Positions 1 to 61,088 of a stretch of DNA of 64,000 bases are shown in pieces (position 1 is the first letter of the stretch; each line of letters begins with the position of its first letter). A program made the position numbers and the translations under genes. The notes beneath the pieces are model-generated. The model saw nothing but the letters and a program-made list of their open reading frames with translations. It ran no database searches and was not told where the DNA came from. The DNA is from a virus, in the IMG/VR virus record IMGVR_UViG_3300025519_000001, positions 1-64,000 of that record; one strand, 5' to 3'.

Positions 1-217
1 AGGGCTGAAGTGTTGGAAATTGCAAGTGAATTTATTTGGAGGGAGGGATATAAAAGCGAATTTAACCTAGTCTACAAAGTATGGCGTGAGGGAGTGTTTA
101 TCGAAGATTGAAAAAAGCAGGGCTAGGGACATGTCCGAGAATGCCGGACAGCCGCTATAACAGCGGCCTCCGCTCAACCTGCTATAACAGCAGGAAAAAT
201 TTAGGAGGGATTTATCT

Positions 218-760
218 ATGAAACTGTCTCAACTGCTTACCACCAAAAAAATTATTGCTTCTGGCTTCGCCGCCATTCGCGGCCTTGAAGCCTATTCGAA
301 AGGTTCGGAACCCGTTGTTCTGTCGTCGCTGTCCCCGGCCATTCTGGCAGAGCAAGGCGTAACGGAATTTTACGCGCTTGTTCTGCCGCGCGGTGCCGTA
401 TATAACACGGCTGATGATATTATCGCCGCCGATTTGGACGTGCGTCGTTATCTTATCCAATCCGCCGATGCTAGCGGCATGGAAACTGTGATTGTCTCCC
501 GGCATCCTGGCACGGTCGCTCTTCTCCAAGCGCAATATCCGGGCGCTCAAGTGCTCGACGCCGTGACGCCGGACCAAATCGCCGGCAAGCATGTTGTCGG
601 GACGTTGCCGCCTCACTTGATCACGGCAGCAGGCGCATATACGGCTGCAACTATCCGTGATTTTGATTATACGCGAGACGGCGACTTGTCCGGAAATGAG
701 CTTGCAGAGCGACTTATTATCGCTGACCAGCCGCTTCAGGTCGTGGAGGTAGAGGCATAA
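218..760 (+). CDS. Csx16 (VVA1548)-like protein with an apparent tandem duplication; candidate cyclic-oligoadenylate ring nuclease / anti-CRISPR
   Basis: C-terminal half has the Csx16 signatures IVSRHPG...VVGTLPPHL...RDGDLSGNEL; N-terminal half (VVLSSLSPAILAEQGVTEFYALVLPRG...DVRRYLI) resembles a degenerate second copy; RBS GGAGGG. Confidence 0.7.
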   Translation: MKLSQLLTTKKIIASGFAAIRGLEAYSKGSEPVVLSSLSPAILAEQGVTEFYALVLPRGAVYNTADDIIAADLDVRRYLIQSADASGMETVIVSRHPGTVALLQAQYPGAQVLDAVTPDQIAGKHVVGTLPPHLITAAGAYTAATIRDFDYTRDGDLSGNELAERLIIADQPLQVVEVEA

Positions 761-1066
761 TATATTAAGATGGAGGTATTGGAATTGGAAGATTTAACAC
801 TGGACGATATTATAACAGTTTTTGACGGCCAACACAAAGACCATAAACATATTTTTTATGATGGATGGCCCAGTCTGCCGCACATAACGGCGGACGATTT
901 GCGCGATTATCAGCGGCCCTTTTAGTTGTTTTTACCATGCTAGGACGCATAACAGCAACATGATACAATTACATACAGTATAGGCGCTGTTGTGCGTCCG
1001 ATGGATGGTAAAAACATCCACTATAAAAATAAAATATTACATAACAAAAAAAGGAGATGTTTTTAA

Positions 1067-1591
1067 ATGGAAGTTCGAATCTATGTTGCCAATCTCGCCG
1101 CCTATAACGCTGGTCGTCTTGTCGGAGAGTGGATCGACCTTCCGCTTTCCAACGAAGAACTGCGCGAAAAAATCCAGTCCATTCTCGACGCCTGGAACGA
1201 TGGCTTTTCGCCGTCGGAAGAGTGGGCCATTCATGATTACGAAGCGCCTTTTGAGATTGGAGAATACGAAAGCCCATATAAAGTGAATGAATGGGCGGAA
1301 AAATTGTCTAGCATTAACGAAGATGAAGAAGTTATCAGCGCCATTTTCGGCGGTTTTTCCATCAAAGAAGCGTTAGAAATTCTTGAGAATGGCGAATACA
1401 GGGTATACAATGACTGCAACGACATGGCAGACGTTGCTTATGCATGGTATGAAGAAACCGGACGGCTTGCGGAAATTGAAAATGTACTGCCTGTATCTTA
1501 TGTCGATTGGGACGCAATCGGTAGGGATATGGAATTAGAAGGGACGTTTATCTATGCCGGTAATGGCGTATATGTTGAAATAACAGATTAA
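1067..1591 (+). CDS. ardA: Antirestriction protein ArdA (DNA mimic, inhibits type I R-M)
   Basis: IYVANLAAYNAGRLVGEWIDLP, EEWAIHDYE and YVDWDAIGRDMELEG motifs; very acidic; RBS AGGAG. Confidence 0.95.
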   Translation: MEVRIYVANLAAYNAGRLVGEWIDLPLSNEELREKIQSILDAWNDGFSPSEEWAIHDYEAPFEIGEYESPYKVNEWAEKLSSINEDEEVISAIFGGFSIKEALEILENGEYRVYNDCNDMADVAYAWYEETGRLAEIENVLPVSYVDWDAIGRDMELEGTFIYAGNGVYVEITD

Positions 1592-1674
1592 CTACAACGC
1601 TTTTCAGCCGTATAACAGTCCACAAGTGCTATAATGGACTTGTGGACTGTATAAAAACCAAAGGAGGCATAAAC

Positions 1675-4600
1675 ATGGAAACATCCAAGTTTTCCGGATT
1701 GTACGAATATTTGGGTTTCGCGATATATAACGCCGGTTCCCGTCACGAATGGGATATTGAGCCTATTGGATGGGATATTCGAGCCATTGAGCGCTGGAAA
1801 GCATCTTCTTTTTCGTTTCGAACACTGGCACAAGCTAAAAAGTGGATTCGGGAAAATGCCGATAACATTAAGGAGAGTGATTATAAAGCATGAAGGAATG
1901 AACATTATATTGCATTATACTATACGATCCATCGAAGTAATACATAGAAGCCAATAGGAGGTTCAACAATCATGTCCAGATGGTTAATCATTTTCAATCA
2001 ATACCAACCAAACGAAACGCGCTATGAAATTATGGCTTCCACTTGTGACGAGGCTATTATGACAGCCATGAGTGAAGCAAACATCTCCAAACGTCCGCCA
2101 AATATTTCTGCTCAAGTGAAGGAGGAATAATCGCCATGCAAACAATGAGTGAATATAAAAAATACAATTATTCAGGTAAAATTTTGGACGTTCTCTATTA
2201 CTCTATAACAGACGATACTCTATATATCAAATACAATGGCAAACAAGCAATGCGAAAAATTCAACAAACAAGCGAATATACATACAAATTTACAAAAACA
2301 CTCGTAAAAGCAATTAACGGCGCGGAAGGTTTACGTCGCTTCTTCGTTTCATGTCATGACGCTGACAGTCCGTTTAATCGTTCGTTTTTTGATACGTTGG
2401 TTAAACTTGTTTCCTAATATGTTATAACAAACAGCAACGCCATAATAGCGCTTGAAATACTCATTTCATGAATATATGGAGGAATAAAAAATGAATAAAT
2501 GCCTTCTGTATATCCTTGTAACTTTCGTCGATTCTGATTTTAATTTTGACGAGTACGAATGCGCAGATTTGGTGGAAGTAGCAAGACTTAGGGAGGAATT
2601 AGAAAACGATAACTATAAATTTGTATCCGCTCAACCTGTCTATGGTTGATAAAAGTCAATACATTACAAGTAAGACAGCAGCCCATGAAATGCGTTTATT
2701 TCATTCGGGATTGATGATATCCTTTTGATTGTATAACAACCGTCTAGGCGGTGTCTGTATAACAGACGAGCAGCCTTAAGTCTAGAGCGTTACGCGCTAT
2801 ATATTGGCGCGTAGATGGCTAGTAAAAAAAGTTAAAGGAGTAATGTTTTATGAATATTGTAACACGTCCACTTGATGAACACGACTATGAAGCCATGAAA
2901 GCAGAAAAGGAAGAAAGGGAAGCAATCGAAGCTATGATGAACTGGGCAGACAATTTTAAACTTGCATTACAAGAAAAGCGATTTTCTGCGGCAAAAGTTG
3001 CACTCGACAGAATGAATAGCATACTTTCGGATTATGTATAACAGATTGAGGAGGAGTAGTTCACATGACTATCAAACAAGCAAAAGAACTAAAGCGCGGC
3101 TCCGTTATCCTCATCAATCACATAACAGGAAAAGACGAACTCGCCCGTGTTGTCAGATGGGATGAACGCGCACAAGGAATTGACTATCACGCCATTAGTG
3201 GCGGAGGAAGTATTTGTAAACCCGAACATATCATAAAAGTGCTTGACGAAAAGCCCTTTTATGAATCGGAAATATGGGCACAAGCATGGAAAGAAAAATG
3301 GAATGAAAACTATAAAAGAAGCCGAAACGCGCTATAACAGCGCGTCCGTATACGGTGGCAACGTGTACGCTGATGATGGTAAGCCAATATGTAGGAGGCA
3401 TAAAAAAATGAAAGAATGGAAGCGAATTATTGCTGATGCAGGCTATGTGCCTACAAAAAATGGACTTGTTTCATATCTTGACGAAAGAAACAAACTTCCT
3501 TTCATTTGTCCGTTTTGGTCCGAAAAAATCAAATACTATCGCAGTTTAACCATAACAGAACTACTGAAGTATATGGAGGAATAAAAAATGAAAACTAACA
3601 ATAAAAATCGCTTTTTTCGCGACTTTTCCTTTTCTGTTTATCGTTATTCTCCCGAATCCTTCCGGCTTTACTACAAAGGAAAAGAAGTCAAACTTTCGGA
3701 CGATGAACGCTTTAACATGGGATATGCAGCCATAACAAAAGGCAAGCAGGAGGTTTTAAAACATATCAAACGCTGGACGCGCAAAAAGTCTACACTTGCC
3801 AAACGTGAATATATGCCTATCCTTGCAATTCTTTCAGACGATAACAGCGAATACTATCATATTGGTGTCCGTGTCAATCGTTATAACATGATGGAAAAGT
3901 TGTCCGTTTATCAATGGATCAAAGAGGCTTTTAATGATGGGCGTTTTGCTATAAAAACGACAACGGCGAAACTGGACGCGAATTTTAAACCCTATGATGT
4001 TCAAGAAGATCAACACGAAAAGAAATTAGGCAAACGGATTGTATTTATTTAAAAGCAAATAATACATTAACAGTTGAATCATACTATAACAGCAAAGGAG
4101 GGACGATTGACGAAATAACAGCATTAAAAAAATATGTAGGAGAGTGTTAAAAATGAACAAACAGGATAACAACAATAACAGCCAATCGGCATGGGATCTA
4201 GTACGAACATACAGACAAGCAGCACAAAGAGCACAAAAAATGTATAAAAAAGGTAAACCGTTTGATGCTAACAGCATTAAAGCGTTTGAACTATATGTGT
4301 CCTTTTCACGTAAGATGATTAATGTAAAATTGTAAAGGAGTGACTAAACAATGCTAGGTAAATGCGTTCATTATGTATCAGGTATTGAAACAAAGCAGCT
4401 TGTAAAAGTTGATCACTACAAAGGATTCGACTTTTATAAGCTACGCAAAAACGCTAACACAGACTGGACGATGATATATTTTCAGCATGACGGACATTTT
4501 TTTCCGATTAGTAACAACGTTGATAATATTAAAAACTTTTTAGATAATAATTCTAACTTTGACATTGCGACGTTTATCGTTTCCGAATTTGAAGAATCAT

Positions 4601-7600
4601 TAAAAACGGGCGCAAATGTATCCATGGGATATGCACAATATCTAGGACGCGAACAGGAGGCGCTGGAAGCCGTTAGGCGTTTCCGAGAGCGCAAGGAACA
4701 AGAAAAGGCGGAACGTGAAGCGAAGAAAGTAGAAGAAGAACGGAAGCGACTCCAGGAGAAGGAAAACGCCATAACAGCAGCGGAACAAGACTACAAAGAA
4801 AATAAATATATTAATGGAGACATTTTTTTAGAATTGTGCGACAAGTATAATATTACAATCCCCATTCGTACTAGAGGATGGATTAAAGAGAATTTAACAC
4901 GAATCAAGTATAACAGCGAAAGAAGTGTGTCATACAGTCATACGGGCAATCCGTCAAAAAGCATTGTCGATATTGCATTTAGTCTCTATAACAGTTTGAC
5001 GGAAAGCGAACAGGAAAGTGGAGAATATGTCACGCTAGACGAATTAAACAATTTATTCGGCGTGAATGCCTAATAACAGGAGGCCTCTCCCATGTCCACA
5101 ATTCGCGTACTGCCTAACGGCGCATTGGTCAATTCATATCGAATCATCGGCACGTCTACAACAGTCTATGAAGCGTTTGAGCCTTCATCCTACACTGGGA
5201 ATCATTCGTGCATTCAGCGCTTCAATGATCGCGTTTATGGCGCTATCAGCAGCAGGAGAACAAGAAGAAGAGAGGATAACAGCAAAGAAGCATTACAACA
5301 TATTTTCGAAGCATTTCCCCATTTGAAACAAGTTGATTATACTATTGACGAATTTATGGGAACGATTGAAACAATTAACGAATAGGAGATGATAAAAATG
5401 AAAATAACAGTTAAATCTTATAAACCTTTGTTTGCAAAAAAAGTAAAATATGTCGCTTCATTCGGACAATTCCAGGAAGAAGGTAATACGAAAGAAGAAG
5501 CGAAGCAGAACCTTATAACAGCGCTTGAGTGGTATTTCAGCAATACAGGCAACGAATTGACAACTAAAGTTATTCCCGAAGCTGGCGTAACTCTGTTCAT
5601 GCTTAGAACGTTCGCAGGATATGAAATAAGAACAGTCTATCATGATGGAAGAATTTCCATGGGAACGAGTCTATATGGACGTTTAAGCCATAGGGAAGCA
5701 TTAGAACGCCTTAATAGTCATGTAGAAGGATATCAAGCAGTAAAGGCCGTATAACACGAATACATAAACAATGGGAGGTTTATATCTATGTCTCAAACTA
5801 TAGCAGGACAAATGTATAACAATCATATCAAGGAAAGTCTCTTGTCTGGTAAACCTGTAGAATTGAGTATGAAAGACTTTTTGCCTAAAAGCCAGTATAA
5901 CAACAAACAAAAACAATACCAAAAAAACGAATTTGAAAAAGAAATTATGGCAGAATTGAAGCGACTCCAAAGCGAGTATATAGGATTTGAAAATATCCAT
6001 CTTCGCATATCGTTGCTTAAATCTCATGTTATGGAAATGATGGCGAATGTTGAAGATATGGAAGATGTAAAAGAAATTTATAGAGTTTATAAAAATATTG
6101 CTTGGAATAATCCTATCTAATTTAACAACCAATAACAGCACACTCCCATAATATCGGCTCCATATGGTATTATGGGAGTGTGTATACAAAGGAGCGGATA
6201 ACATATGACTCATTTCACGTTTACGGGTTACTACGCAGGACAAACTTTTTGTGGAGTAGCACGAAACGAAACGGATAAATATATGCACATTCAAGGCTCT
6301 AATACTCCTATCATGAAGCGTCTTTTGAGCGGGAAAGAGAAATTATGTCCCCATTGTTGAGAAATCTATTTATCTGAAGGTGAGGATGAGGGCGATGAAT
6401 GAGACAATAAAGCAAGTTGAAGATGAAATAAATCGAATAACAAAAGAAATTAAAACATGTGATAGCAGTGAACGCATCAAGGAATTGCAGAATGAACGTG
6501 ATGAATGGTCTATGATTTTAGGAATCATGTTAAACAAACAGAATACATAACAGCTATGTTTGAATCAAACCAGTCTTTCATTATCACAAACGGAGATAGA
6601 TAAACAATGATTCTAACTATAATTGGAATTATACTCTCTGTGTTTTGTGTTTTATCGTTGCTATTGGGAATTGTCGGGTTATTTAATAAAGAGGATTATT
6701 CCTATAGTGGCAATAGAAGTTATAATAGTATAGGGCCGTTTGGAATGGCATTTGTTTTCGGATTGATTGCATATACTTTGCTTCATGTGCAATAACACAA
6801 TAAAACAAGTATTTCATGACCATATAATAGGAGGCTTTAACAATGGAGAAGTATTTTATTAAGGATCATGGCGACGATTTTGAAGTACTAACAGAAGGGC
6901 AGGCTAAGGGAACGAACGCCATTTCTTTGTTTGAATATCTCAAAAAGCAACTAGATAGTGTCGATGCTTCGTTCTATCTTTATCTCCATGAATTTCCTGT
7001 GTTTGGGGATGAAATAGGTTTAAAGCCAGAAGAGGTTTTACCGACACTTCAAAGGGCAGCAGATTTCCTTGGAGGCATGACACGTTCTCAAGTATACGAC
7101 GAACTTTGCCAACATGATAAATTGGCTGTATTCTTCAAAAGTGAAGCAAAAACTCTTATTAAGGATGCTCTTATCAAGAAAGCAAATTCATTGCTCAATG
7201 AAGCATTAACTCTTTGATAAACAACGTGGAGGTTGTATAACAGCAACCTCCAAAGATCCCATGAAAACGGCATTTCAAGTCTATACAAAAAAATATCAAG
7301 CCGACAGCCGATGATAGAACGGCAGGCCGAAAGGATGGTTAAAAATGGAAAAGGTAAAAGTAACGTATCAAGCAGGACAATCAAGATATTCTAACGCAAG
7401 CGTAGACTACATGCTTGCAGAAGTTGATGGCATCGAACTTTATGCAGAGCGTCCGCCCGTTGAAGATGATGAGACTGGAAGTTACGAGGAGTTGAAATCT
7501 GCGATCATCGAGCAGGCCCAGGCGCATAACATCGACGTGGGACTCTTGGAGTTTTGGTACGACGACGCACAACATTCTAGGGAGGTTTAAACCATGGCAA

Positions 7601-8310
7601 TTAAATTTAAACATCCCGAATATGATTTTTCGTTCGAGGTTAAATTCATTATTAGAGACTTGGAAGCAGTAAAAACTAATATCCAAAATCCGTTTATTAT
7701 GGCTTCTGGCACACTCGATAATCATTTATTTGACATCCCGCATTCCGCAAATTATACAATCAAAAATTCTCTTTTTAGTCTCATGCAACATATAACAGGG
7801 CAACAAAACATATGGGACATTTGCAAAACCGCATTTGATAAAGACGAGGAATGGGGAAAGTGGAGAAATGATGGTTTGCTTTATGAAGCATACCATAAGT
7901 ACACAATAAAGCCTGCATACGTCGATCAAGTCTTATTTGTTATTGATCAGTGGATCGCTGAAGCAAAGGAAATCATGCAGAAAATGATTGACGCAGAAGA
8001 AGAAAAGAAACGACAGCGCGAAGCAGATTATAACAGATTTACAATCATTGAAACGTATCAATTAATCATGCCTACAGGCGGCGAAGATGGCACAGACGGA
8101 TATTTTGACGGATTGATCCGTAATAATAGCACGGGAATATCTATCCGAGTAGTAGCTAAAAATATATTTGATGTTGGTTTCTTCTCGTATCCTAAACGTG
8201 TTGAAGAGACAGAAGAAGTGTTTAATAGACAATCTTGGACAGACGACGAAAAGGATGCTTGCGCTTGGATTGGTAAGTTTTCGCCTTTTACTACTGCTAT
8301 TCGTATGTAA
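1675..8310 (+). other. Block of about 17 co-oriented small hypothetical early genes (e.g. 1675-1893, 2136-2417, 2850-3041, 3065-3337, 3588-4052, 4351-5073, 5092-5385, 5398-5754, 5788-6120, 6607-6795, 6843-7217, 7345-7590, 7594-8310)
   Basis: ORF track plus strong GGAGG/AGGAG RBSs; no family recognised. Confidence 0.75.
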
Positions 8311-8406
8311 TAACAACACAATGTTATAACAGCCCAAGCGGAGCCGATCCGCTTATTTATTTTAATAGCAAGGATGAAAATAAGGATTTAAAATAAAATA
8401 TTATAC

Positions 8407-8435
8407 TTTACTAGTGTAAAATACAATGATATGAT
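8407..8435 (+). promoter_or_regulatory. Sigma-A promoter (TTTACT-17-TATGAT, extended -10)
   Basis: Close to consensus; follows a terminator-like hairpin at about 8336-8363 and precedes ORF 8478. Confidence 0.6.
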
Positions 8436-8477
8436 AGTTTTAGAGTTAAAAATTACATATGAGAGGACTGATCGTCA

Positions 8478-8846
8478 ATGTCCTATACAGTTACAGAAGC
8501 GAATATTAAAGCATGGGAAAACCAAATTAAGAAATTCGAAAACATGACAGATGTTAATAACAGCTACTTTGAAGTGTTCCGCGATTCAAAATATCCTGAT
8601 TGGCAAACGGACTCCAAACAAAAAGCAAGTTGGCTGCAATATAAAAGTAGAGTTGGTAACTTTTTGGATTCAATTGCCAAAGATGTTGTAACAATGACAT
8701 ATGAAGAAATCGCTAAGTATATCGAAGCAAAACCAAATACAAAAAATCATATTAACGGCTTTTTGCTTTTCATTATCAGAGAAAACGTTCTCAATTGCCG
8801 TGAGCGAATCAATAAAGATTTATTGTTTTGGGTTTTAGGTTTTTGA
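8478..8846 (+). CDS. Hypothetical protein, possibly a stand-alone integrase N-terminal (SAM-like core-binding) domain
   Basis: YKSRVGNFLDSIAKDVVTMTYEEIAKYI resembles the helical pattern of integrase core-binding domains; no catalytic domain. Confidence 0.4.
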   Translation: MSYTVTEANIKAWENQIKKFENMTDVNNSYFEVFRDSKYPDWQTDSKQKASWLQYKSRVGNFLDSIAKDVVTMTYEEIAKYIEAKPNTKNHINGFLLFIIRENVLNCRERINKDLLFWVLGF

Positions 8847-9880
8847 CTATAACAGCAGTAGTACACGAAATCAGAATTTTATGAGGGAGACAAATAATAA
8901 GATGAAAAACAAAAATGTGAAATTTGACTCCAATGTACCCAACTGGGTTAGAATTGCAATGTCAGAAGAATTTTGTATGGGATGGAATCCAGTTAAAGAA
9001 AATGAGGATATTTATGTAAAGTTCATTGAGCATAGAAATTTTGAAGAAATTATTATGACTGTAAACGATGAGGCATATGAATTTGACCGCTTTTCAAGAT
9101 GTTATTTCCTAGTAAAATAAGTGAAAAATAAAAAAGATGGAGTGATAACAATGAAAGAATATCGAATTGAGACACATTATTTTGTAAACGGTGAATGGTT
9201 TGCGGATATCTGGCTTTTTGAGAATGGGATGCCGATTGATTTTATTAAGAAAGTGAAAAGAAATGATGATGGAAGCATGTCGCCTGAATACGGTAATAAA
9301 CTTGGAACAAACTGGATTGCTCCGCAATTTGTTTATGCATAACAGCCGATGAAATAAGGTTTTCATTCAATCTTGAAAGGATGATAACAGATGAAATTCA
9401 ACGGAGTAAAGTTGACAGAGGAATCAATTTTAAAGGCGCGTCAATGGTATGCTGATAATGCTAGAGGATGCATTGAGGAAGTACAGAACGGTAGCGTTAA
9501 AGTAAATGATCCTGAAGCGTATATTAAATGGCGTGAGAAACAAATTGAGGATGCTTTAGCGGGACGCTATGATCATACATTAGCGTTCTTACAACGGGCT
9601 TATTATATTCAAACTGGTGAATGTGTGGCATTGTTGCCATAACAGACAATGAAATAATGCTTTCATGTAAAGTTTAAAAATAAAATATGGAGGATACATA
9701 TGAATGGAATCATTTATTTGGTAGCATGGCAAATAACAGGTGTAATTCTTTTCTTATCAGTTTGTGCTGTTATTGGTTTGAATATGACGGTTTTTGCTGA
9801 TATTGAAGAGGAAGAAGAATGTTTTGGTTATAAAAATAAAGTTTTGGTTTATTGGAATGATAACGAAAAATCTTAATTAT

Positions 9881-9926
9881 ATGAAGTCACCGTAAAACCC
9901 CTGCGTTTACGCATGGGGAGTGTCAA
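9881..9926 (+). mobile_element. IS200/IS605 mini-remnant (single hairpin, PATE-like)
   Basis: CCCCTGCGTTTACGCATGGGGAGTGTCAA; the 3' end GGGGAGTGTCAA is identical to the right end of the element ending at 61088. Confidence 0.7.
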
Positions 9927-9957
9927 AAATAATTATTATCAAGGAGGAATTTAAGCT

Positions 9958-11043
9958 ATGCAAGCAGAAATTGTATTTGAGGAAAATGTAGAAAAAAATT
10001 TGATGGAGGACAAAATCATGGTAGAAGATAATAATAGCAAGCAATATACATCCTTGGCTGAACGTATTGCAGCAGAAAGGATTCAAAAATCGCAAGCACA
10101 ACCAAGAAGCTTGCGAAATATCGCAAGAAATCCCAATTCGTTTAACTTTGATTTGGCAGTACAAAGAAACTTGAGATGGACAGATTTCCAAGTTAGCGAA
10201 TTGATTGAATCGATTTTGCTTGGATATCCGATTCCTCCAGTTTACGCCGTTAAATCAGAGGATAATATTACATGGTGCATTGATGGTAAGCAAAGGTTTA
10301 AACGTGCTATTATTCCTTTTATGAGGGACGAAATTGCAATTGTAGATGATTTTCGTCCAATCTTCGGAGTGGACATTTCTGGGAAGAAGTTTTCAGAACT
10401 TCCGCCAGAATTTCAGGAAATTCTCGAGGATTTTAATGTTGTCATTTATCAATTCGAAAAGTTGACTCCTGACCAAAGAGATGATTTTTTCCGCAGATTG
10501 AATAGCGGAACTCCTCTTTTGGCAATTGAGTTGACACGCTCCATTCTGGGTTCCGAATTGCTTGATTATATTAACAGCCTCATTGAGACGCCTTTCATGC
10601 AAAAGGTGGCTTTGAGTGACAAACAACGAGATAAATATGTAGATCAAGAGTTGGTCTTGCAAATGATTTCTATTATAACAGAACGAGGATATGACATCGG
10701 AAGTAAAGAAATGCGGGAATTTGCATTGAAACTTCGTATTGATGGGCTTTCGCAGGGAGAAAAAGACAGGATTCAAAAGACATTTGACTTCCTTTCCGTA
10801 GCCTTTGCTTCAACTGACGAGAAAACAGCTAAGAAGATCCTTAAGAAAGCAGATGTTATTGGAATTGTTGGCGCTGCTGTAAAAGCAACTTGTACTCCAG
10901 AGGTCTTCAGCGAAAAATTAAGTATTTACATTGCTAATCAAGCTTCTGGATCGAATTATGCGAATACGAAACGAAATAAAAGTTCTTCGGCAGATAGCGT
11001 AAAAAGACGTATTGAAATTTTGATTGGAGTATTGGAAGAATAA
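9958..11043 (+). CDS. DUF262 (ParB/Srx-superfamily, GmrSD N-terminal-like) domain protein
   Basis: VQRNLRW...LIESILLGYPIPPVY...IDGKQR and FFRRLNSGTPL motifs; no obvious HNH/DUF1524 domain. Confidence 0.85.
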   Translation: MQAEIVFEENVEKNLMEDKIMVEDNNSKQYTSLAERIAAERIQKSQAQPRSLRNIARNPNSFNFDLAVQRNLRWTDFQVSELIESILLGYPIPPVYAVKSEDNITWCIDGKQRFKRAIIPFMRDEIAIVDDFRPIFGVDISGKKFSELPPEFQEILEDFNVVIYQFEKLTPDQRDDFFRRLNSGTPLLAIELTRSILGSELLDYINSLIETPFMQKVALSDKQRDKYVDQELVLQMISIITERGYDIGSKEMREFALKLRIDGLSQGEKDRIQKTFDFLSVAFASTDEKTAKKILKKADVIGIVGAAVKATCTPEVFSEKLSIYIANQASGSNYANTKRNKSSSADSVKRRIEILIGVLEE

Positions 11044-11054
11044 GTATTGTTAAA

Positions 11055-11088
11055 AGGCTAGGAGAGTGTTTGTCGCTCTCCTAGCCTC
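11055..11088 (+). terminator. Intrinsic terminator-like hairpin
   Basis: AGGCTAGGAGAG...CTCTCCTAGCCT right after the DUF262 stop codon. Confidence 0.65.
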
Positions 11089-11172
11089 AATAAAAAATAA
11101 TTTCTTTTTATAACAGCATGTGCTATATTGTTTATAGAAACGAAATATTATACATAACAGGTGATCAGATTT

Positions 11173-11388
11173 ATGTCGAACATCTATAAAGAAAATGGCT
11201 ATAACAGTCGTGAAGAATACCTTGAAGAACTTGCAGATGAATATGGTATTCCATATGAAATGGTTTATAGTCTGTGGGAAGTCTTAGGGGATGAAGAAGC
11301 CTTTGACGGGCTTGTAAGCGCCTGTGAAGACGCAGAAGCGTTGATGACAAGCGAAGAAGACGAAGAGGAGAATGAAGAATGGGACTGA
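11173..11388 (+). CDS. Small, highly acidic hypothetical protein
   Basis: ORF with RBS AGGTG; about one third D/E residues. Confidence 0.7.
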   Translation: MSNIYKENGYNSREEYLEELADEYGIPYEMVYSLWEVLGDEEAFDGLVSACEDAEALMTSEEDEEENEEWD

Positions 11389-11687
11389 TTAGGGTTATCG
11401 TCAAAGAGCCACAGAAGGATGCTTATGTGACTGACATTTCAAATACGCTCGAAGCTAAACAGAAAATTGTTGGTGGATATATAGAAGCCGTTCCCTTTGG
11501 AATTGACCATATTCTTATCTTAAATGAAGAAGGAAAACTAATTGGACTTCAACCGAATATTTTATGGAATGATGATGTGATCATGGGAACGATCATTCTA
11601 GCGCGGAATGAAGCGCCAGAATTTGGTTCCATTCGTCCAGAAGAAGAAGGATGGATGATTCAGATGCTTAACAGAGCGTCGGTATAA
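11379..11687 (+). CDS. DUF3846 family protein
   Basis: LEAKQKIVGGYIEAV...ILNEEGKLIGLQPN motif. Confidence 0.8.
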   Translation: MGLIRVIVKEPQKDAYVTDISNTLEAKQKIVGGYIEAVPFGIDHILILNEEGKLIGLQPNILWNDDVIMGTIILARNEAPEFGSIRPEEEGWMIQMLNRASV

Positions 11688-13451
11688 GTATATGAAACAA
11701 CGATTTCATGGATATTTCAAAAATAACAGACAAAAGGTGTTATTATGAATGACAAAGAATTGTTTGAAGTAGTGAATAAGGCACTCTTTCAAAATAAATC
11801 ATGTTCTTTTGACACATGGTATACTATCATTGTAAATAACAAACCAATATTTGAGGCTGCAATTAACAGCAAAGGATATATACATATTCGAAAACCCATC
11901 AAAAAAGTTGATTGGTACGAAAATCGAAATGATGTATTTCTTTATCGAAAATGGCGATTTAACAGCAAAAAGGAATTAGTTGATGCTGGAATGATCGAAG
12001 GAACAAAACCGAATAAAGAAGATATTAAGGAGGTTATTTTATGACGCTGGAACAGTTTTTTGATTTGCCTATTGACACGCAAGAGCAATGCGATGAATGG
12101 CTTAGACTTTATCGTAAGTGGTATAAAGCACAAACTAAAAGAACGAAAAGGAGTCGATAACAATTGAAAAGACTTGCAGAAAACTTGAGAAGCCGATAAA
12201 AGCAGGATTTGATTAGAATAAAAATAATAATAGGATGGTGTTAAAAATGAAAAATTATGATAGCAGAGAGCAAATTGCGTATGATGAAGCCGCAATAATA
12301 GCAAGTGAAATTATGTACCAAAATAATGTCTATACAAAGAATAGGATAATCGACAGCGTAAGATTCGGAGATTATGAAAACCTTCAGTGTATTGTATTCA
12401 GGTGAGAAAAGGAAAGTCACAACGTAGAAATTTATCATAATGGCGAAGAGATTAAATATGTTGGAACTGGTTACAGTATGTATTAGTCGATGAAAGAATG
12501 ATTTTATAAGGAGTGATAAAAAATGACAGCAAGGAGAAAGATTGCTAACAAAATTTATGAGTTGGGAAATGGCGATACTTTTGATTTTCATTTTAAAACT
12601 GAGGATGGAACGACAATTTATGCGGCTGCTACGTGCATGAGGATTCATGACCTTAATAGGGTTATTGTGTCGGCGTATGGTAGAAATGAGTACGACAGAA
12701 TTATTAGTGAATTTGATACTGTGGCTGATATTGAGAAAAAGCTTGATTTTATTTGCGAATAACAGCGAATACAAAAGGCAAGAAATTTTATATATAAAAG
12801 GTGAGATAAAAGTAGCAGTATTCTTTGAAAAAATTAGCCCTAAAGTTTTGGAAGCAGCGAAAAAATTGGAAATGGAAGGTTATATTCGTATCAACAAGTT
12901 TGAACATGGTGAAAACTGGATGCAGATTGCAGATGAAGTTATTGATGAAGTTGCTTTGCTAAACGAATATAAAATTGAAGTTAAATGGTTTGATGGTTCG
13001 TGTGCGATTAGAAAGAGTAAATAAAAGATTATTTCACAAGAACAATAACAGCAGGAGGTATACATATGTTCAAGGTGACTACAATCGAATGGTGGAATGG
13101 TCATATAACAGTCGCAGAGTACCATTTCGACAATGTGCTGCATATGTACAAATTCATTCATCTGTGCGAACAAGACGGAATTAAGTATAAAGTTGTAAGA
13201 GTTAAAAATAATAATCAACAGAAAGGAGCATGACAGTTGGTCGGAATCCTTTTGTTAATTCTTTCAACTATTGCTGGTCTGCTGTTTGTTTTACTTATCA
13301 TCTTTGCGGTATTAAGAATTAAAACAACTATGAAAATAAAACAAATTAGGAATAAAATACTTGCTATAGAAGTTGATCGTAATGTTTTGCTACAGCAAAT
13401 TAAGCAGATTGAACAGGAAAGCCTATAAATAGTATCTTTGATCGGCATATT

Positions 13452-13573
13452 AAGTTGTAAAAAAGTTATAAGCAAGTTACCAGCAAGCTAAAAAACCGCA
13501 TAACAGTAAGGTTTCTTTATAATTTAGGGGCGGTTTTGCAAGTTAAATGCAAGTTAGAAATAAGTTATAAGTT
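13452..13573 (+). repeat. 11-bp-phased AAGTT direct-repeat array around an inverted repeat (iteron/centromere/att-like site)
   Basis: AAGTT or AAGCT at 13452, 13463, 13474, 13485, 13540, 13551, 13562, all in one 11-bp register; central AAAACCGC...GCGGTTTT. Confidence 0.7.
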
Positions 13574-14010
13574 AGAATCAAATGTCCATTTCGAGGAGAG
13601 TTGATAGTATGAAACTGAACAGGGATGATATCTATGTAGCAACATTTGTTCATTGTTTAGATGAAGCTGATATAATTCAACAGACCACCAGCGGACGCAA
13701 GTTCTATCGTTTAAAAAATTTTCTAGGTGATCTAGGTTATATTGTTAAGTCTGTAGAGTTAATCAATTAATTGTTTCGTGGGGTGCGAATAATGAATAAA
13801 AAGATTTCATATAAAGAAGCAATTGAACGAATTCAAAGGTTAAAATATACGTTTATAGGGAATCGTGATCAACTTCATGAGGAAATTGATCGTATTATTG
13901 TTATGACTAAAAAAGAATGAAAGCAAGGATAAGATGAAATGAAGAAGGACAATATTTATGAGAAATGTAGTAGGTGTTTTTAAAATAAAAAAATAAAATA
14001 TGTAAAACTA

Positions 14011-15640: not shown

Positions 15641-16126
15641 TTAACCAGCGGAACTTTCGTTTTTCAGAAAACCTAATTTTCGGGCGTTGTTTAACATGTT
15701 GATCAGGTTATCTAAATCTTCACCATTAGGGATTTCTTGAATTTTTTGTTCCAATCTGACGTTTTCCCTACGGAGCTTATTGTGGTCTCTTTGTAATCGT
15801 TTATAAGCAGCGGTTGCTTCTTCAACTGCTTTCGTCAGTATTTCAAATGGATCTTCACTGTTTTCTGCGATATCAGGAATATCAAGTTTTTGATTTTTAT
15901 TTTCACGAAGCGTCCTTTTTTCTTGTTTTGCTTTTTCAAGTTCATCTTCGTATTGCTTCCTAACTTTACTATTCCAACGGAAACCACAAGCTGCTGGAGT
16001 TCTTGATAATCTTTCCGCCGCTACTTTAAATCCTTCCCCTTGTGTGCCACCGTTTCTTACGCTTTCAAGAATCGCTTCAGCAAGAATGTGGTCATTTTCT
16101 GCACTCCAACTATCTTTCCTGTTCAT
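15641..16126 (-). CDS. rsfA: RsfA/YlbO-family (Myb-like) sporulation transcriptional regulator
   Basis: MNRKDSWSAENDHILAE...GGTQ...LSRTPAACGFRWNSKVRKQY; start moved to ATG 16126 after RBS GAGGCG. Confidence 0.9.
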   Translation of the reverse strand: MNRKDSWSAENDHILAEAILESVRNGGTQGEGFKVAAERLSRTPAACGFRWNSKVRKQYEDELEKAKQEKRTLRENKNQKLDIPDIAENSEDPFEILTKAVEEATAAYKRLQRDHNKLRRENVRLEQKIQEIPNGEDLDNLINMLNNARKLGFLKNESSAG

Positions 16127-16206: not shown

Positions 16207-16220
16207 AGAACATTTGTTCC
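16207..16220. promoter_or_regulatory. LexA (SOS/Cheo) box between rsfA and mazF
   Basis: AGAAC-ATTT-GTTCC matches the Firmicutes GAAC-N4-GTTC box; 2 nt upstream of promoter TTGATA-17-TATACT (16223-16251). Confidence 0.7.
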
Positions 16221-16304
16221 CGTTGATAAAAAAGAAAAAATTATATATACTGTTTATAGTGTAAAAAAATAAATTATTAGGTTTAACATTTGGGAGTGGA
16301 ACGG

Positions 16305-16697
16305 ATGTTAGCCACGTTGGAAAGAGATATTTCGCAAAAGATTAACACAATACGTAGAATGGATATTTATTTTGCTGACCTTCGTGGAAACAATGCAGGT
16401 TCAGAACAGACAGGAATAAGACCAGTTTTGGTTATACAAAATGATATTGGCAATACTTATAGTCCAACTATTATCGTTGCGAATATTACATCATCGGAAA
16501 CAAAAGCAAAATTACCTGTTCATGTTCCTTTGAAAGCTAGTAAGACTGGGTTGAGAAATGATAGTATTGTTTTGTGCGAACAAATAAGAACAATTGACAA
16601 GTCTAGGCTAATTGAAAAAATAGGAACGGTGGATAAAGAAACTCAAAGGGAAATTGATCTTGCGCTTAAAAAGAGTATTGGTCTGATTAATTTTTAA
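16305..16697 (+). CDS. mazF: MazF/PemK (NdoA-like) endoribonuclease, no MazE upstream
   Basis: DIYFADL...GSEQTGIRPVLVIQNDIGNTYSPTIIVA...LCEQIRTIDKSRL; likely start ATG 16305. Confidence 0.93.
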   Translation: MLATLERDISQKINTIRRMDIYFADLRGNNAGSEQTGIRPVLVIQNDIGNTYSPTIIVANITSSETKAKLPVHVPLKASKTGLRNDSIVLCEQIRTIDKSRLIEKIGTVDKETQREIDLALKKSIGLINF

Positions 16698-16722
16698 TTT
16701 TTATAAATAGGAGAGATTCTTT

Positions 16723-16887
16723 ATGAGTTTTTTGATTGTTGGTTCTAAAAAAGGCGTATATGACACTAGAGAATTGGTTATTGAATTGGAGAGTCGTGGT
16801 GTTCAAAACGCCGAAATGATCGTTGATGATGTTATCAAAAAAAGAAAAGCGACAATTTGTGGGTTGAGAATTCTCACTCTTCAATAA
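16723..16887 (+). CDS. 54-aa protein probably co-transcribed with mazF (not in ORF track)
   Basis: RBS AGGAGAG; MSFLIVGSKKG...LRILTLQ; followed by a terminator hairpin at 16893-16923. Confidence 0.65.
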   Translation: MSFLIVGSKKGVYDTRELVIELESRGVQNAEMIVDDVIKKRKATICGLRILTLQ

Positions 16888-16946
16888 TTTGTAACCTCTT
16901 ATGGATATCATAAGAGGTTTTTTGTTTAAAAATAAAATATTTAATA

Positions 16947-16976
16947 TTGACAAATGTAAAACAAAAAAATTATAAT
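16947..16976 (+). promoter_or_regulatory. Sigma-A promoter TTGACA-18-TATAAT heading an accessory gene array
   Basis: Both hexamers match consensus exactly. Confidence 0.8.
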
Positions 16977-23117: not shown

Positions 23118-23396
23118 CTAAACAACGTCGTCTTGGGAAACAACGTCAGTCCACTCAATACGACAATTTTTCGCAATTAATGAATAACTACCCCCATCGC
23201 AAGTATAAATATCTCCATCGATTAGCATAATAGTGTGATTATTGATTTCATTGCGAACATTTTTTAAGGCATCTTCTGGTGGGCCAAAGATAGGGAAATA
23301 AATTGGTATCACAAGGCGACCAGCGACAAAAAGTTTTTCCATTGCGAACTCAACTCCCCCGGTCGGTGGTAAGATGCGGTAAATGAATCTTATCAT
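23118..23396 (-). CDS. Hypothetical protein, probably leaderless and SOS-inducible
   Basis: Only minus-strand gene in the area; TATACT -10 box 7 nt before the ATG; LexA box just upstream. Confidence 0.6.
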   Translation of the reverse strand: MIRFIYRILPPTGGVEFAMEKLFVAGRLVIPIYFPIFGPPEDALKNVRNEINNHTIMLIDGDIYTCDGGSYSLIAKNCRIEWTDVVSQDDVV

Positions 23397-23414: not shown

Positions 23415-23428
23415 AGAACAAATGTTCG
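23415..23428. promoter_or_regulatory. LexA box
   Basis: AGAAC-AAAT-GTTCG. Confidence 0.8.
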
Positions 23429-23524: not shown

Positions 23525-24217
23525 TTGAATTACGAATTATTTTTTAAATTTTTGGAGGATATAGGAATTAACAACCATTACTTAATAAAAAATAATATCT
23601 TGTCAAGCGAAACAATGCATAGAATAAAGCATGGAAAAAATATTAGGTTTAAGACAATAGAGAAGGCTTGCGAAAAGTTAGGAGTAGATGTTAATGATAT
23701 TACGATTAGAATGGAAGAAGGTTCTTGTGGTGATGAATTTAAATTTAAAGAATGCGACCCAGATATAATTTCAAAATTGAGAAAAAATTCATTAAAAAAG
23801 AGAAAAAAATTTCAAATCGTGGGACTTAAACAACTTCGCAAACAGCAAAAAGTATCCAAAGAGCATATTGCAAATAGCGTAGGTAAAAGTGCCCAGATGA
23901 TTGGAGTATGGGAGCGTGGTGAGCAGGCTATTTACGAAGAGTATGTTGAAAAAATAAAGAAAGTTCTTGATATACCACCTGAAGCAATTATTGAAGTCAC
24001 TGAAAAAAATAAGAACTTAATTTTAAACCATAAAAAATTGCCGAAAATTAATTCTCCGACTAAACAACGATCTCGAACTTACAAATATAGAGGGTATCTC
24101 ATAACACCTACTGGAAATGGCTTATGGAGAGTTCATAATACTTATTTGAGTCAAGAGTACAAAACTTTATCAGATTGTAAAAAATATATTGACTCCAAAG
24201 TGGGAGAAATTCGCTAA
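23525..24217 (+). CDS. Regulator with two XRE/Cro-type HTH domains
   Basis: LSSETMHRIKHGKNIRFKTIEKACEKLGV and LKQLRKQQKVSKEHIANSVGKSAQMIGVWERG. Confidence 0.8.
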   Translation: MNYELFFKFLEDIGINNHYLIKNNILSSETMHRIKHGKNIRFKTIEKACEKLGVDVNDITIRMEEGSCGDEFKFKECDPDIISKLRKNSLKKRKKFQIVGLKQLRKQQKVSKEHIANSVGKSAQMIGVWERGEQAIYEEYVEKIKKVLDIPPEAIIEVTEKNKNLILNHKKLPKINSPTKQRSRTYKYRGYLITPTGNGLWRVHNTYLSQEYKTLSDCKKYIDSKVGEIR

Positions 24218-30884: not shown

Positions 30885-32353
30885 CCCTCATGTCGGCAGA
30901 AGACCCCCACTTCTACAAGTGGGGGATGAATGACGACTAGATATTTTACCAATAATATTGACTTTTAGTAAACTAATTTGATATATTATCCATAAGGAGG
31001 TGAAAAATATGCCAAAAGGTAAAACTAAAAATATCATTTACGGTTGTCAGAAACAACAATTAAATCATCTTTCCAAAAAAGAATATATTGCATTAAAAAC
31101 AATGTGCCATTTTGCAAAGAATCTATACAATGTTGGATTATACAATGTTCGTCAATATTATTTTCAGGAACAAAAATATTTGTCCTATGAATCTAATTAT
31201 TATCTTTCTAAAGATAACGAAAATTATAAATCATTAAACAGCAATATGGCACAACAAATATTAAAAGAAGTTGACACGGTGTTCAAATCATTTTTTGGAT
31301 TAATACAAAAAGCCAAACAATCTAATTATGATTTTAGAAACATTAGTCTTCCACGTTACTTGGAAAAAGATAGTTATTTCACCTTAGTCATCGGCCAAAT
31401 TCGTATAAAACCAGACATGACTTTAGATATTCCTATGTCGCCAGCGTTCAAGAGAGAATATGGTAAAGTAACCATTAAAGTACCTGAAAATCTTCGTAAT
31501 AAAAAGATTAAAGAAATTCGTATTATTCCTAAATACAAGGCAAGGTTTTTTGAGATTCAATATACGTATGAAGCTATTGAAGTTCAAAAAGAGTTAGATC
31601 AAAATCATGTACTTGCTATTGATTTAGGATTGGATAATTTGGCTACTTGTGTTACGAATTGGGGTAAATGTTTTATTGTTGATGGTAAAAGGTTGAAATC
31701 TATTAATCAGTGGTACAACAAAGAAAATTCAAGACTACAAAGCATCAAAGATAAGCAAAAATTAAAAGGAATAACCAAGAAACAAGCGATACTTGCAATA
31801 AATCGCAATAATCAAGTTAATGACTATATTCGCAAAACTTCAAGGATTATTGTTGACTATTGTATTAAAAACAATATTGGCTCTCTTGTGATTGGATACA
31901 ATCCAACTCTGCAACAGGGTAGCAATATGGGCAAAAGAAACAATCAAAACTTTGTGAATATTCCAATTGGTCAATTAAGAGAAAATATCAAATATCTTTG
32001 TAAGATTAATGGAATTCAATACAAAGAACAAGAAGAAAGTTATACAAGCAAAGCAAGTTTCTTCGATAACGATGATCTTCCTGTTTACAATGCTGATAAT
32101 CCTCAAAAATATGAGTTTAGCGGCAAACGTATTACAAGAGGGCAATATCAAAGTAAGAGTGGTAGAATTATTAATGCTGATGTAAATGGTGCATTAAATA
32201 TTTTGCGTAAAAGTAAACTGGTGGATTTAATAATCCTACAGTGTAGCGGCGATTTGGACACGCCTTTGAGAATAAGGGTTGCTTGACCAAACTTCTCAAG
32301 AATCCCCCGCTTCTAAGTGAACGAAAGTGAGCGTAAGCGGTGGGAGGGTTCAA
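30885..32353 (+). mobile_element. IS200/IS605-family element, TnpB only; inserted after TTTAT, ends in TTCAA
   Basis: Left-end hairpin CCCCCACTT/AAGTGGGGG, right-end hairpin and TTCAA; precise excision restores the host ORF; no tnpA. Confidence 0.9.
31000..32286 (+). CDS. tnpB: TnpB (RNA-guided RuvC nuclease family)
   Basis: AIDLGLDNLA, EESYTSK and INADVNGALNI motifs; likely start ATG 31009. Confidence 0.93.
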   Translation: MKNMPKGKTKNIIYGCQKQQLNHLSKKEYIALKTMCHFAKNLYNVGLYNVRQYYFQEQKYLSYESNYYLSKDNENYKSLNSNMAQQILKEVDTVFKSFFGLIQKAKQSNYDFRNISLPRYLEKDSYFTLVIGQIRIKPDMTLDIPMSPAFKREYGKVTIKVPENLRNKKIKEIRIIPKYKARFFEIQYTYEAIEVQKELDQNHVLAIDLGLDNLATCVTNWGKCFIVDGKRLKSINQWYNKENSRLQSIKDKQKLKGITKKQAILAINRNNQVNDYIRKTSRIIVDYCIKNNIGSLVIGYNPTLQQGSNMGKRNNQNFVNIPIGQLRENIKYLCKINGIQYKEQEESYTSKASFFDNDDLPVYNADNPQKYEFSGKRITRGQYQSKSGRIINADVNGALNILRKSKLVDLIILQCSGDLDTPLRIRVA

Positions 32354-59772: not shown

Positions 59773-61088
59773 AAATCCACCACAAGAAAGCCCCTGTCTT
59801 TAGGCATGGGGATGAATTGTGGTAGGATAAGTTGGTAAAAACTTGATTTTCATAACTAAAATATGATATATTTATTATAAGAAAAAAGAACGGAGGTGAC
59901 ATTTGTGCAATCCATCACTGTAAAAATCAGATTTTTTCCTGATAACCCAAAGGTCATTAAAGAAGCATCACAAGAATATATCAATATTGTCAATAAATTA
60001 TCTCAACAAGCAGTAGAAAATAAAACTTTCCCTAAAATCACAACAAAAGATATTTCAACTTTTCTTCCATCTGCTGTTTGCAATCAAGCGATCAGAGACG
60101 CAAAATCTGTATATACCAAGTATAAAAAAACCAAAAAATTATCTGTTCTTAAGAAGCCAGTATATTATATTAATAATCAAAATTATACCATTCTTGATAA
60201 TGCAATTGCCTTTCCTATATCTATTAACGGAAAAACGAAAAAGACATATTTTAAAGCCATTGCAACAGATAGAGATATAGAATTAATCAAAAAATCCAAA
60301 CTTGGTCTTATGCGTATTGTAGAGAAATCAGGTAAATGGTATGCTCAAGTGTCCATTCAAATTCCAGAAGAAAAATTTAGTGGCGAAAATATCATGGGCA
60401 TTGATCTTGGCTTAAAAGTTCCTGCTGTTGCTGTAACATCAACAGGCAAGACAAGATTTTTTGGTAATGGTAGGCAAATGAAATATGTCAGGCGCAAATA
60501 TCAGTCTCGCAGAAGAAAATTGGGTAAACTTAAAAAACTTTCGGCCATCAAAAAATTAGGCGATAAAGAAAGCAGATGGATAAAAGACCAAAATCATAAA
60601 ATCAGTAGACAGATTGTGAATTATGCTATACAAGAAAATGCAAGTATGATAAAACTAGAAAAATTAGAAAATATTCGCAAGACGACAAGAACAAGTCGTA
60701 AAAACGCAAGGAATCTGCACAACTGGTCATTCTATCAACTGCAACAGTTTATCACATATAAGGCTAACTTGGCAGGAATTAAAGTTATAGAAGTTAATCC
60801 TGCATATACAAGTCAAACATGTCCTCGTTGTGGTAAACGAAATAAAGCAGATGATAGACGATATGAATGCTCATGTGGATTCAAGACACATAGAGATCGG
60901 GTTGGTGCAATAAACATCATGAACCAACCTGTGGCAGATGGTAACAGTCTGCCAGCCTAAGAACCTATATGGTCTGTCTTAGGATGGGCTGATGGCACAG
61001 CCCTTAACTTGGAGATTGCACGAAGTAGAAATGCATGAGTGCGCGAATCATCCAAGAATCCCTCGGATTTATCCGTGGGGAGTGTCAA
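59773..61088 (+). mobile_element. IS200/IS605-family element, TnpB only; inserted after TTAC, ends in TCAA
   Basis: Left hairpin CCCCTGTCTTTAGGCATGGGG, right hairpin CCCTCGGATTTATCCGTGGG then GAGTGTCAA; reading frame restored on excision. Confidence 0.9.
59896..60960 (+). CDS. tnpB: TnpB, catalytic D-E-D and zinc finger intact
   Basis: GIDLG, IKLEKL, YTSQTCPRCG, CSCG, HRDRVGAINI. Confidence 0.95.
   Translation: MTFVQSITVKIRFFPDNPKVIKEASQEYINIVNKLSQQAVENKTFPKITTKDISTFLPSAVCNQAIRDAKSVYTKYKKTKKLSVLKKPVYYINNQNYTILDNAIAFPISINGKTKKTYFKAIATDRDIELIKKSKLGLMRIVEKSGKWYAQVSIQIPEEKFSGENIMGIDLGLKVPAVAVTSTGKTRFFGNGRQMKYVRRKYQSRRRKLGKLKKLSAIKKLGDKESRWIKDQNHKISRQIVNYAIQENASMIKLEKLENIRKTTRTSRKNARNLHNWSFYQLQQFITYKANLAGIKVIEVNPAYTSQTCPRCGKRNKADDRRYECSCGFKTHRDRVGAINIMNQPVADGNSLPA

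Follow-up and report, generated by a model that had tools for sequence, protein, structure and literature searches.

A canonical type II MazEF module consists of a mazE antitoxin gene (AbrB/SpoVT or RHH fold) located just upstream of mazF in one operon, and the classical MazE neutralises the MazF endoribonuclease by means of an acidic, largely disordered tail. The characterised EndoA-type MazF enzymes cut RNA after the U of UACA, the recognised sites being UACAU in Bacillus subtilis, Staphylococcus aureus and Clostridioides difficile and UACAAA in Candidatus Desulforudis (PMC8634880). In phages of the SPbeta family, the MazEF system of the host is manipulated by small proteins to steer the choice between lysis and lysogeny, and in arbitrium phages host MazF is central to this decision. 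For instance, AimX and YosL of phage phi3T inhibit host MazF, whose activity favours lysogeny and whose inhibition is a prerequisite of lytic growth, and phi3T_93 binds MazE, thereby freeing MazF (PMC10769878). It has also been shown that SOS input reaches SPbeta-family phages via LexA-controlled small proteins. The Sar antirepressor of SPbeta and phi3T is under the control of a LexA box located between yopS and yopT (10.1101/2025.11.27.690993), and the word GAAC-N4-GTTC was confirmed at this place in the SPbeta sequence. Here, we describe a phage-borne mazF gene that lies behind a LexA box and is followed by a gene for a 54-residue protein, designated ORF54. The genes are located between positions 16,207 and 16,946 of a 64,000-nucleotide (nt) window, which comprises the first 64 kb of the 154,759-bp virus record IMGVR_UViG_3300025519_000001 from IMG/VR (CheckV completeness 96%). 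Coordinates refer to the window unless a genome position is indicated.

Phage-borne MazF genes are already known (PHROG 1936; annotation of phage Perkons). The new elements are the family of 54-residue partner proteins, the toxin-first gene order, the conserved LexA operator and the neighbouring gene of the RsfA family, and no MazF/PemK module with this order and partner turned up in the libraries and the literature that were searched. Taken as a whole, the locus may represent a self-contained, SOS-gated, toxin-first MazF/ORF54 module of an SPbeta-like temperate phage, composed of the RsfA-family gene, the LexA operator, mazF-orf54 and a terminator, and we give this reading about an even chance of being correct. 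A first-pass annotation of the window had described an intact mazF with its own promoter abutting a LexA box, no mazE upstream, a 54-codon open reading frame (ORF) downstream and a terminator, and all of these features are indeed present. The locus is organised as follows:

15641-16126, minus strand: divergent gene for an RsfA-family (Myb-like) transcriptional regulator, 160 amino acids (aa) from the ATG at 16126
16208-16219: LexA (SOS, Cheo-type) box GAACATTTGTTC
16223-16251, plus strand: sigma-A-type promoter with -35 TTGATA, a 17-nt spacer and -10 TATACT, 10 of 12 consensus positions, starting 3 nt past the box
16292-16299, plus strand: ribosome-binding site (RBS) of mazF, GGGAGTGG, with the ATG at 16305
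16305-16697, plus strand: mazF, EndoA-type PemK/MazF endoribonuclease of 130 aa (PF02452 PemK_toxin, phrog_1936)
16723-16887, plus strand: orf54, 54 aa, MazF partner and candidate non-canonical inhibitor, RBS GGAGAG
16893-16926, plus strand: intrinsic terminator, a hairpin (16893-16919) with a 12-bp stem and a 3-nt loop, followed by a T run
16947-16976: perfect promoter of the next unit, TTGACA-18-TATAAT

The toxin matches the PF02452 profile over positions 1-108 of 109 with an E-value of 1.5e-33 and 115.7 bits (cut-off 23.1), and the Bacillus EndoA/MazF chains 4MDX, 4HKE and 7BXY of the PDB are matched at E-values of about 1e-34 to 1e-35. It is about 57-60% identical to the EndoA proteins of the Bacillaceae. 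R39 and T62 align with the catalytic residues Arg25 and Thr48 of B. subtilis MazF, of which the latter gives an RNase-dead enzyme when exchanged for alanine (T48A; PMC10769878). Both residues are retained, and the alignments also reveal the substrate loop G32-S33-E34-Q35. By sequence, the protein is an EndoA-type MazF with intact catalytic residues, and the view that the phage encodes an intact MazF of its own downstream of a LexA box is borne out by the family match, these residues and the conservation of the box described below. Judging from the family, the most probable targets of the enzyme are U^ACA-type sites in mRNAs of the host and the phage. There is no sense-strand depletion of the word TACAT, which is mildly enriched genome-wide and in four of the ATAACAG arrays treated below, and since there is no avoidance it gives no clue to the specificity of MazF. 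Two traits of the phage enzyme are derived in comparison to B. subtilis MazF: its N-terminus is extended by 15 residues, and the beta1-beta2 loop is longer by one residue (RGNNAGSEQ versus SPVVGSEQ). The MazF proteins that are linked to ORF54 share the derived signature RRMDIY.ADLRGGNAGSEQ together with the N-terminal extension. Moreover, the start codon of mazF aligns with a GTG in the lineage L013, with a conserved RBS in front.

The mazF and orf54 genes can be regarded as an autonomous transcription unit because the next unit has a separate consensus promoter at 16947. The extended box AGAACATTTGTTCC in front of the mazF promoter agrees with the Bacillus LexA operator CGAAC-N4-GTTCG at 12 of 14 positions, and both half-sites are intact. 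The word GAAC-N4-GTTC occurs twice in the 64-kb window, at 16208 and 23415, in comparison to 0.34 occurrences expected from shuffles. It sits 85-115 nt 5' of mazF in the window and in L013-15, L016/17, L019, L064 and L065. Across these six diverged lineages, the GAAC and GTTC half-sites are invariant, the N4 spacer reads ATTT, ACTT, GTCT, ATAT or GTTT, and the intergenic DNA around the box has diverged, including a 62-nt insertion in one of them. Furthermore, a promoter with -35 and -10 elements separated by 17 nt begins 2-4 nt downstream of the box in 6/6 lineages. This phylogenetic footprinting provides good support for the conserved box at the mazF promoter being a LexA operator.

The divergent gene upstream of mazF was considered as a possible mazE and ruled out, given its orientation and its RsfA-family membership. 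Its product matches TIGR02894 (DNA_bind_RsfA) with an E-value of 4.1e-34 and 118 bits, just under the cut-off of 126, and also PF13921 (Myb_DNA-bind_6). The gene is retained in all six box-bearing lineages, with RsfA-like homologues in the equivalent divergent position in L013, L016, L019, L064 and L065. Searches with MazE_antitoxin (PF04014) and RHH_1 (PF01402) gave no match across the entire 154,759-bp record, and the canonical type II MazEF arrangement is thus absent from the locus. The description of the toxin as an orphan is correct in so far as the phage lacks a MazE; however, the term is misleading because this clade of MazF is always followed by ORF54.

ORF54 matches no family of Pfam, PHROGs, NCBIfam or PADLOC, and when 1.84 billion representative proteins were searched with its profile, only seven credible sequence clusters emerged. 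The gene lies directly 3' of a PemK/MazF gene in 10/10 lineages (the window, L013-15, L016/17, L018, L019, L020, L021, L022, L064 and L065), either at a distance of 13-67 nt or overlapping with it, by up to 26 nt. The lineages L064 and L065 were found from the toxin side, as the MazF proteins P0007 and P0005 share the loop signature and each is then followed by an ORF54 relative. MazF without ORF54 exists in Perkons and in the P0008 clade (L066/67), whereas ORF54 without MazF was never seen among the credible members examined. The ORF38 of Perkons and the 79-aa ORF 3' of the L066 mazF gene are not relatives of ORF54. Two borderline profile matches were not counted because they are spurious or uncertain, namely P0128 (reverse-transcriptase-like) and P0129 (beside a Tpt1 fragment). 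The TARA contig L023 carries a borderline ORF54-like ORF of 66 aa (E-value 7e-4) beside a fragment of the RNA 2'-phosphotransferase Tpt1 and not beside MazF, which is possibly unrelated. The pN values of orf54 (0.15-0.37) are well below the pS values (0.5-0.9), and on these grounds it can be taken as a real, conserved gene under purifying selection. The assumption that the small ORF belongs with MazF is strongly supported by the strict co-occurrence, in line with ORF54 being a dedicated partner of its MazF clade. The one-sided dependence of ORF54 on MazF is the pattern that a toxin accessory or an inhibitor would show. Together with the clade-specific change in the loop that MazE displaces, it argues for a direct partnership of the two proteins, and ORF54 is probably a non-canonical inhibitor of MazF.

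An AlphaFold2 model of ORF54 (predicted local distance difference test, pLDDT, 90.6) depicts a compact protein with the topology b-b-a-a-b-b. The model had no Foldseek match in the PDB at an E-value of 0.001 or below. The best VIA-wide match, to a small DNA-binding protein, reached a Z-score of 4.9, which is below the meaningful level, and the ESM Atlas contained weak pre-ATP-grasp look-alikes only. The isoelectric point (pI) ranges from 5.2 to 9.6 in the ORF54 family; it is 9.0 for ORF54 and 9.4 for MazF of the window.

The phage can be assigned to the SPbeta family because it has genes for an MrpR-type repressor and for a DndB/YopQ-like protein, an assignment that follows from gene content. 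Further genes encode a DnaB-type helicase, a RecJ-like exonuclease and two YopX proteins. Close relatives were not found among the GenBank phages by megablast, the best identity for RecJ being 38%, nor in IMG/VR when MazF, ORF54 and RecJ served as queries. A search with SPbeta AimR gave no match in the phage; AimR diverges fast and is therefore a weak query. The following features of the window concern the regulation of the phage or are transposase genes:

23118-23396, minus strand: 92-aa ORF flanking a second LexA box
23415-23428: second LexA box AGAACAAATGTTCG, 13 of 14 positions and hence the better match, between the divergent 92-aa ORF and a double-helix-turn-helix (HTH) gene
23525-24217: gene for a 230-aa protein with two HTH domains, flanking the second box
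33115-34458: DndB/YopQ-like gene, preceding mrpR
34464-35453: MrpR-type integrase-fold repressor gene (PF22822 and PF22823)
31000-32286 and 59896-60960: two TnpB-like (IS605 OrfB-type) transposase genes

The region around 23415-23428 is a candidate for a further SOS-controlled switch. Directly 3' of mrpR, a 72-aa ORF (35712-35930) corresponds to YopT/Sar of SPbeta in position and size; its sequence does not resemble that of YopT, and it is not preceded by an SOS box. Insertions similar to the IS605 OrfB-type genes are located close to the MrpR genes of Geobacillus virus E3 and L016. CCWGG and GGWCC are nearly missing genome-wide (CCTGG, 4 observed and 40 expected; GGACC, 3 observed and 31 expected), which suggests avoidance of host restriction sites.

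Among the known systems, MazEF of B. subtilis (EndoAI/EndoA, encoded by ndoAI-ndoA) resembles the phage locus in having a toxin of the same subfamily, with shared catalytic Arg and Thr residues and GSEQ loop, in a two-gene operon. In contrast to it, the phage-borne module has no MazE, places the toxin first, employs a basic, globular protein of 54 aa as the partner and is preceded by a LexA operator. The AimX, YosL and phi3T_93 proteins of phi3T and SPbeta are likewise small SPbeta-family proteins that modulate MazF in the lysis-lysogeny decision; that small proteins of this phage family act on host MazEF had been stated accurately by the first-pass annotation. However, their target is the host-encoded system, whereas MazF is phage-encoded here; ORF54 matched none of the families in the four libraries, a comparison made at the level of families and not directly with these three proteins. 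The order of a toxin gene before a small partner gene in a tight operon is also known from the type II modules HigBA, MqsRA and HicAB, which belong to different toxin and antitoxin families.

In the lysogen, LexA of the host would occupy the box abutting the mazF promoter at its -35 element and keep the operon silent. DNA damage would remove LexA, and MazF and ORF54 would then be co-produced. MazF would cut mRNAs, probably at U^ACA-type sites, and ORF54 would most likely bind and restrain the enzyme as an antitoxin encoded after its toxin, so that the RNase is timed or dosed during induction. By analogy to phi3T, the module would supply a phage-owned MazF and its inhibitor under SOS control. 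A more far-reaching version holds that ORF54 founds a new class of small globular MazF binders and that the rsfA-like gene, the LexA box and mazF-orf54 form a phage-owned, SOS-gated MazF switch, replacing the circuit of host MazEF and AimX/YosL that phi3T uses for its lysis-lysogeny choice. This version is tentative, and we lean against it.

Several observations weigh against a self-contained SOS-gated module in which ORF54 inhibits MazF. ORF54 is not acidic: the protein of the window is basic, and the charge differs between members of the family. It is also predicted to be compact and globular, unlike the disordered tail of MazE. The related MazF proteins of Perkons and L066 have neither ORF54 nor MazE, so that an antidote is not an absolute requirement for a phage MazF. 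The weak fold resemblances of ORF54 are to small DNA-binding domains (best Z-score 4.9) and would fit a regulator as well. Moreover, the LexA box could also, or instead, serve the promoter of the divergent RsfA-like gene because it is about 85 nt away from both start codons. If the charge and the predicted fold of ORF54 are taken at face value, MazF could be a true orphan that is restrained by host MazE (EndoAI), with ORF54 acting as a positive modulator, e.g. by binding MazE and freeing MazF, or as a specificity or stability factor. The identity of 57-60% to Bacillaceae EndoA makes cross-neutralisation by host MazE plausible, a published study names such an effect among UACAU-type MazEF pairs as its subject (PMC10893535), and phi3T_93 is a precedent for a MazE-binding phage protein. 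However, it is precisely in the clade linked to ORF54 that the beta1-beta2 loop, which is displaced by MazE, is changed and longer, which suggests adaptation to a different binder, and we consider a positive modulator unlikely.

The arrangement of the cassette would also be compatible with a role of ORF54 or of the RsfA-like protein as an SOS-induced switch, similar to the Sar/YopT antirepressor that inactivates MrpR/SroF, MazF being co-expressed cargo. Indeed, the geometry of yopS on the minus strand, the SOS box and yopT/sar on the plus strand in SPbeta is the same as that of the rsfA-like gene, the box and mazF-orf54, with a LexA box between a divergent regulator gene and a small plus-strand gene in both cases, a layout that would connect the SOS response with the programme of the phage. 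Sar proteins are small and poorly conserved (10.1101/2025.11.27.690993), and in the window the only SOS boxes are those at 16208 and 23415, with none beside mrpR or the following 72-aa ORF (near 35.4-35.9 kb). However, the Sar genes (YopT, Phi3T_99) are small SOS-boxed genes located one ORF 3' of MrpR/SroF, whereas the cassette lies 18 kb upstream of mrpR without adjoining it, and its cargo is the MazF RNase with ORF54. ORF54 never occurs without MazF, a tie that no antirepressor would require, and neither its sequence nor a profile comparison relates it to YopT (hhalign probability 0.2%). YopT (2DLB), which has an intertwined-dimer fold, is also missing from the Foldseek and VIA fold matches of ORF54, which is weak evidence given that Sar proteins share less than 20% identity. 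With the second SOS box at 23415 as an equally good candidate for induction control, a Sar-like role of the cassette appears improbable.

A different function of MazF had been proposed by the first-pass annotation, namely that it reads the word AUAACAG in the mRNAs of early genes. The array of this word is real. ATAACAG is present in 52 plus-strand copies in a contiguous block that extends from about 150.4 kb to the end of the record and from position 1 to about 13.6 kb (genome 150497-154700 and window 1-13506), about 3 copies being expected, and the opposite strand has one copy. Although intergenic DNA makes up 22% of the block, 29/52 copies are intergenic, many of them near gene starts, and the copies in coding regions use both frames that avoid a TAA stop. 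The word is an exact 7-mer, and there is no consensus in its flanks. Downstream of the block, it is avoided on the sense strand in each of the three complete genomes (the window phage, Perkons and E3), with 6 copies observed and 23.8 expected in their sum, and it is not avoided on the antisense strand. The early block contains the following genes:

window 1067-1591 and genome 152071-152598: two ArdA anti-restriction homologues
9958-11043: GmrSD_N/NsnA-like gene

A 49-aa ORF (13771-13920) is located just beyond the last ATAACAG copy, and a homologue (46% identity over 35 aa) is found at the matching end of the array in Perkons (Perkons 22618). The same oriented array exists in Psychrobacillus phage Perkons (27 copies, 5.4-22.6 kb), Geobacillus virus E3 (16 copies), L016, L022 and L066. 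It was not found in SPbeta, Sundance, Tsamsa, KKP_3916, BcoS-136, pW2, C30-3, PK-3 and FADO. The densest array belongs to the metagenome contigs L066/L067, which encode the MazF P0008, with 39 plus-strand copies in 12.4 kb; its only long gap (5265-6784) spans the MazF gene. As regards the array, the targets of T4 RegB and the stoperators of cluster A mycobacteriophages are comparable in that short oriented words are repeated through early genes and read by one phage protein. RegB acts on RNA, and the gp71 repressor of L5 acts on DNA. In contrast to both, ATAACAG is an exact 7-mer without flanking consensus.

If MazF were the reader, it would process or clear the mRNAs of the early anti-defence operon at sense-strand AUAACAG as RegB does in T4, which would need a shifted specificity in this MazF clade. 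Arrays are found beside or around an EndoA-type MazF gene in the window, L016, L022, Perkons and L066. Among 11 complete MrpR/RecJ-type phages, the 3 with an array all have a PemK-family gene and the 8 without an array have none, and with its altered beta1-beta2 loop the enzyme could have changed in specificity. However, ATAACAG lacks the UACA core that is cut by all EndoA-type MazF proteins named in PMC8634880, and the RNA-contact residues taken from that study (G of GSEQ, R-P) are conserved in the aligned MazF of the window. The occurrence of mazF and the array across relatives also speaks against the idea. E3 retains the array and has the strongest avoidance, yet it has no EndoA-type MazF; its only two PemK genes lie beside the tape-measure gene, and at 19-24% identity of the products an identical 7-mer specificity is implausible. 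When IMG/VR was searched for three copies of the word in close proximity, local arrays were obtained in 13 contigs, of which 0/13 had a PemK gene; among them are the complete genomes G005 (strand ratio 38:3) and G009 (19:1), which show an oriented excess, although both lack MrpR and may be unrelated. Conversely, the MazF-bearing phages G001-G003 have no array, and in L064 there is none within 6 kb on either side. The type of beta1-beta2 loop does not track the presence of the array, and the sharing of an identical 7-mer by phages whose hosts belong to different genera is better explained by a conserved host factor or by a reader acting on DNA. A tblastn comparison at an E-value of 1e-5 identified no protein that is common to the window phage, Perkons and E3 yet missing from SPbeta and Sundance. 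The proposal that MazF reads the array is therefore regarded as very unlikely.

A branch of the SPbeta family carries its own MazF, which is wired to a conserved LexA operator and always accompanied by a 54-residue partner, and the neighbouring RsfA-family gene hints at a tie to sporulation control. If ORF54 inhibits MazF, its very small fold would be new among the inhibitors of this widely used RNase toxin, and the toxin-first MazF module would be a new variant. Moreover, with the module it would be simple to test if induction is steered by MazF activity as such.

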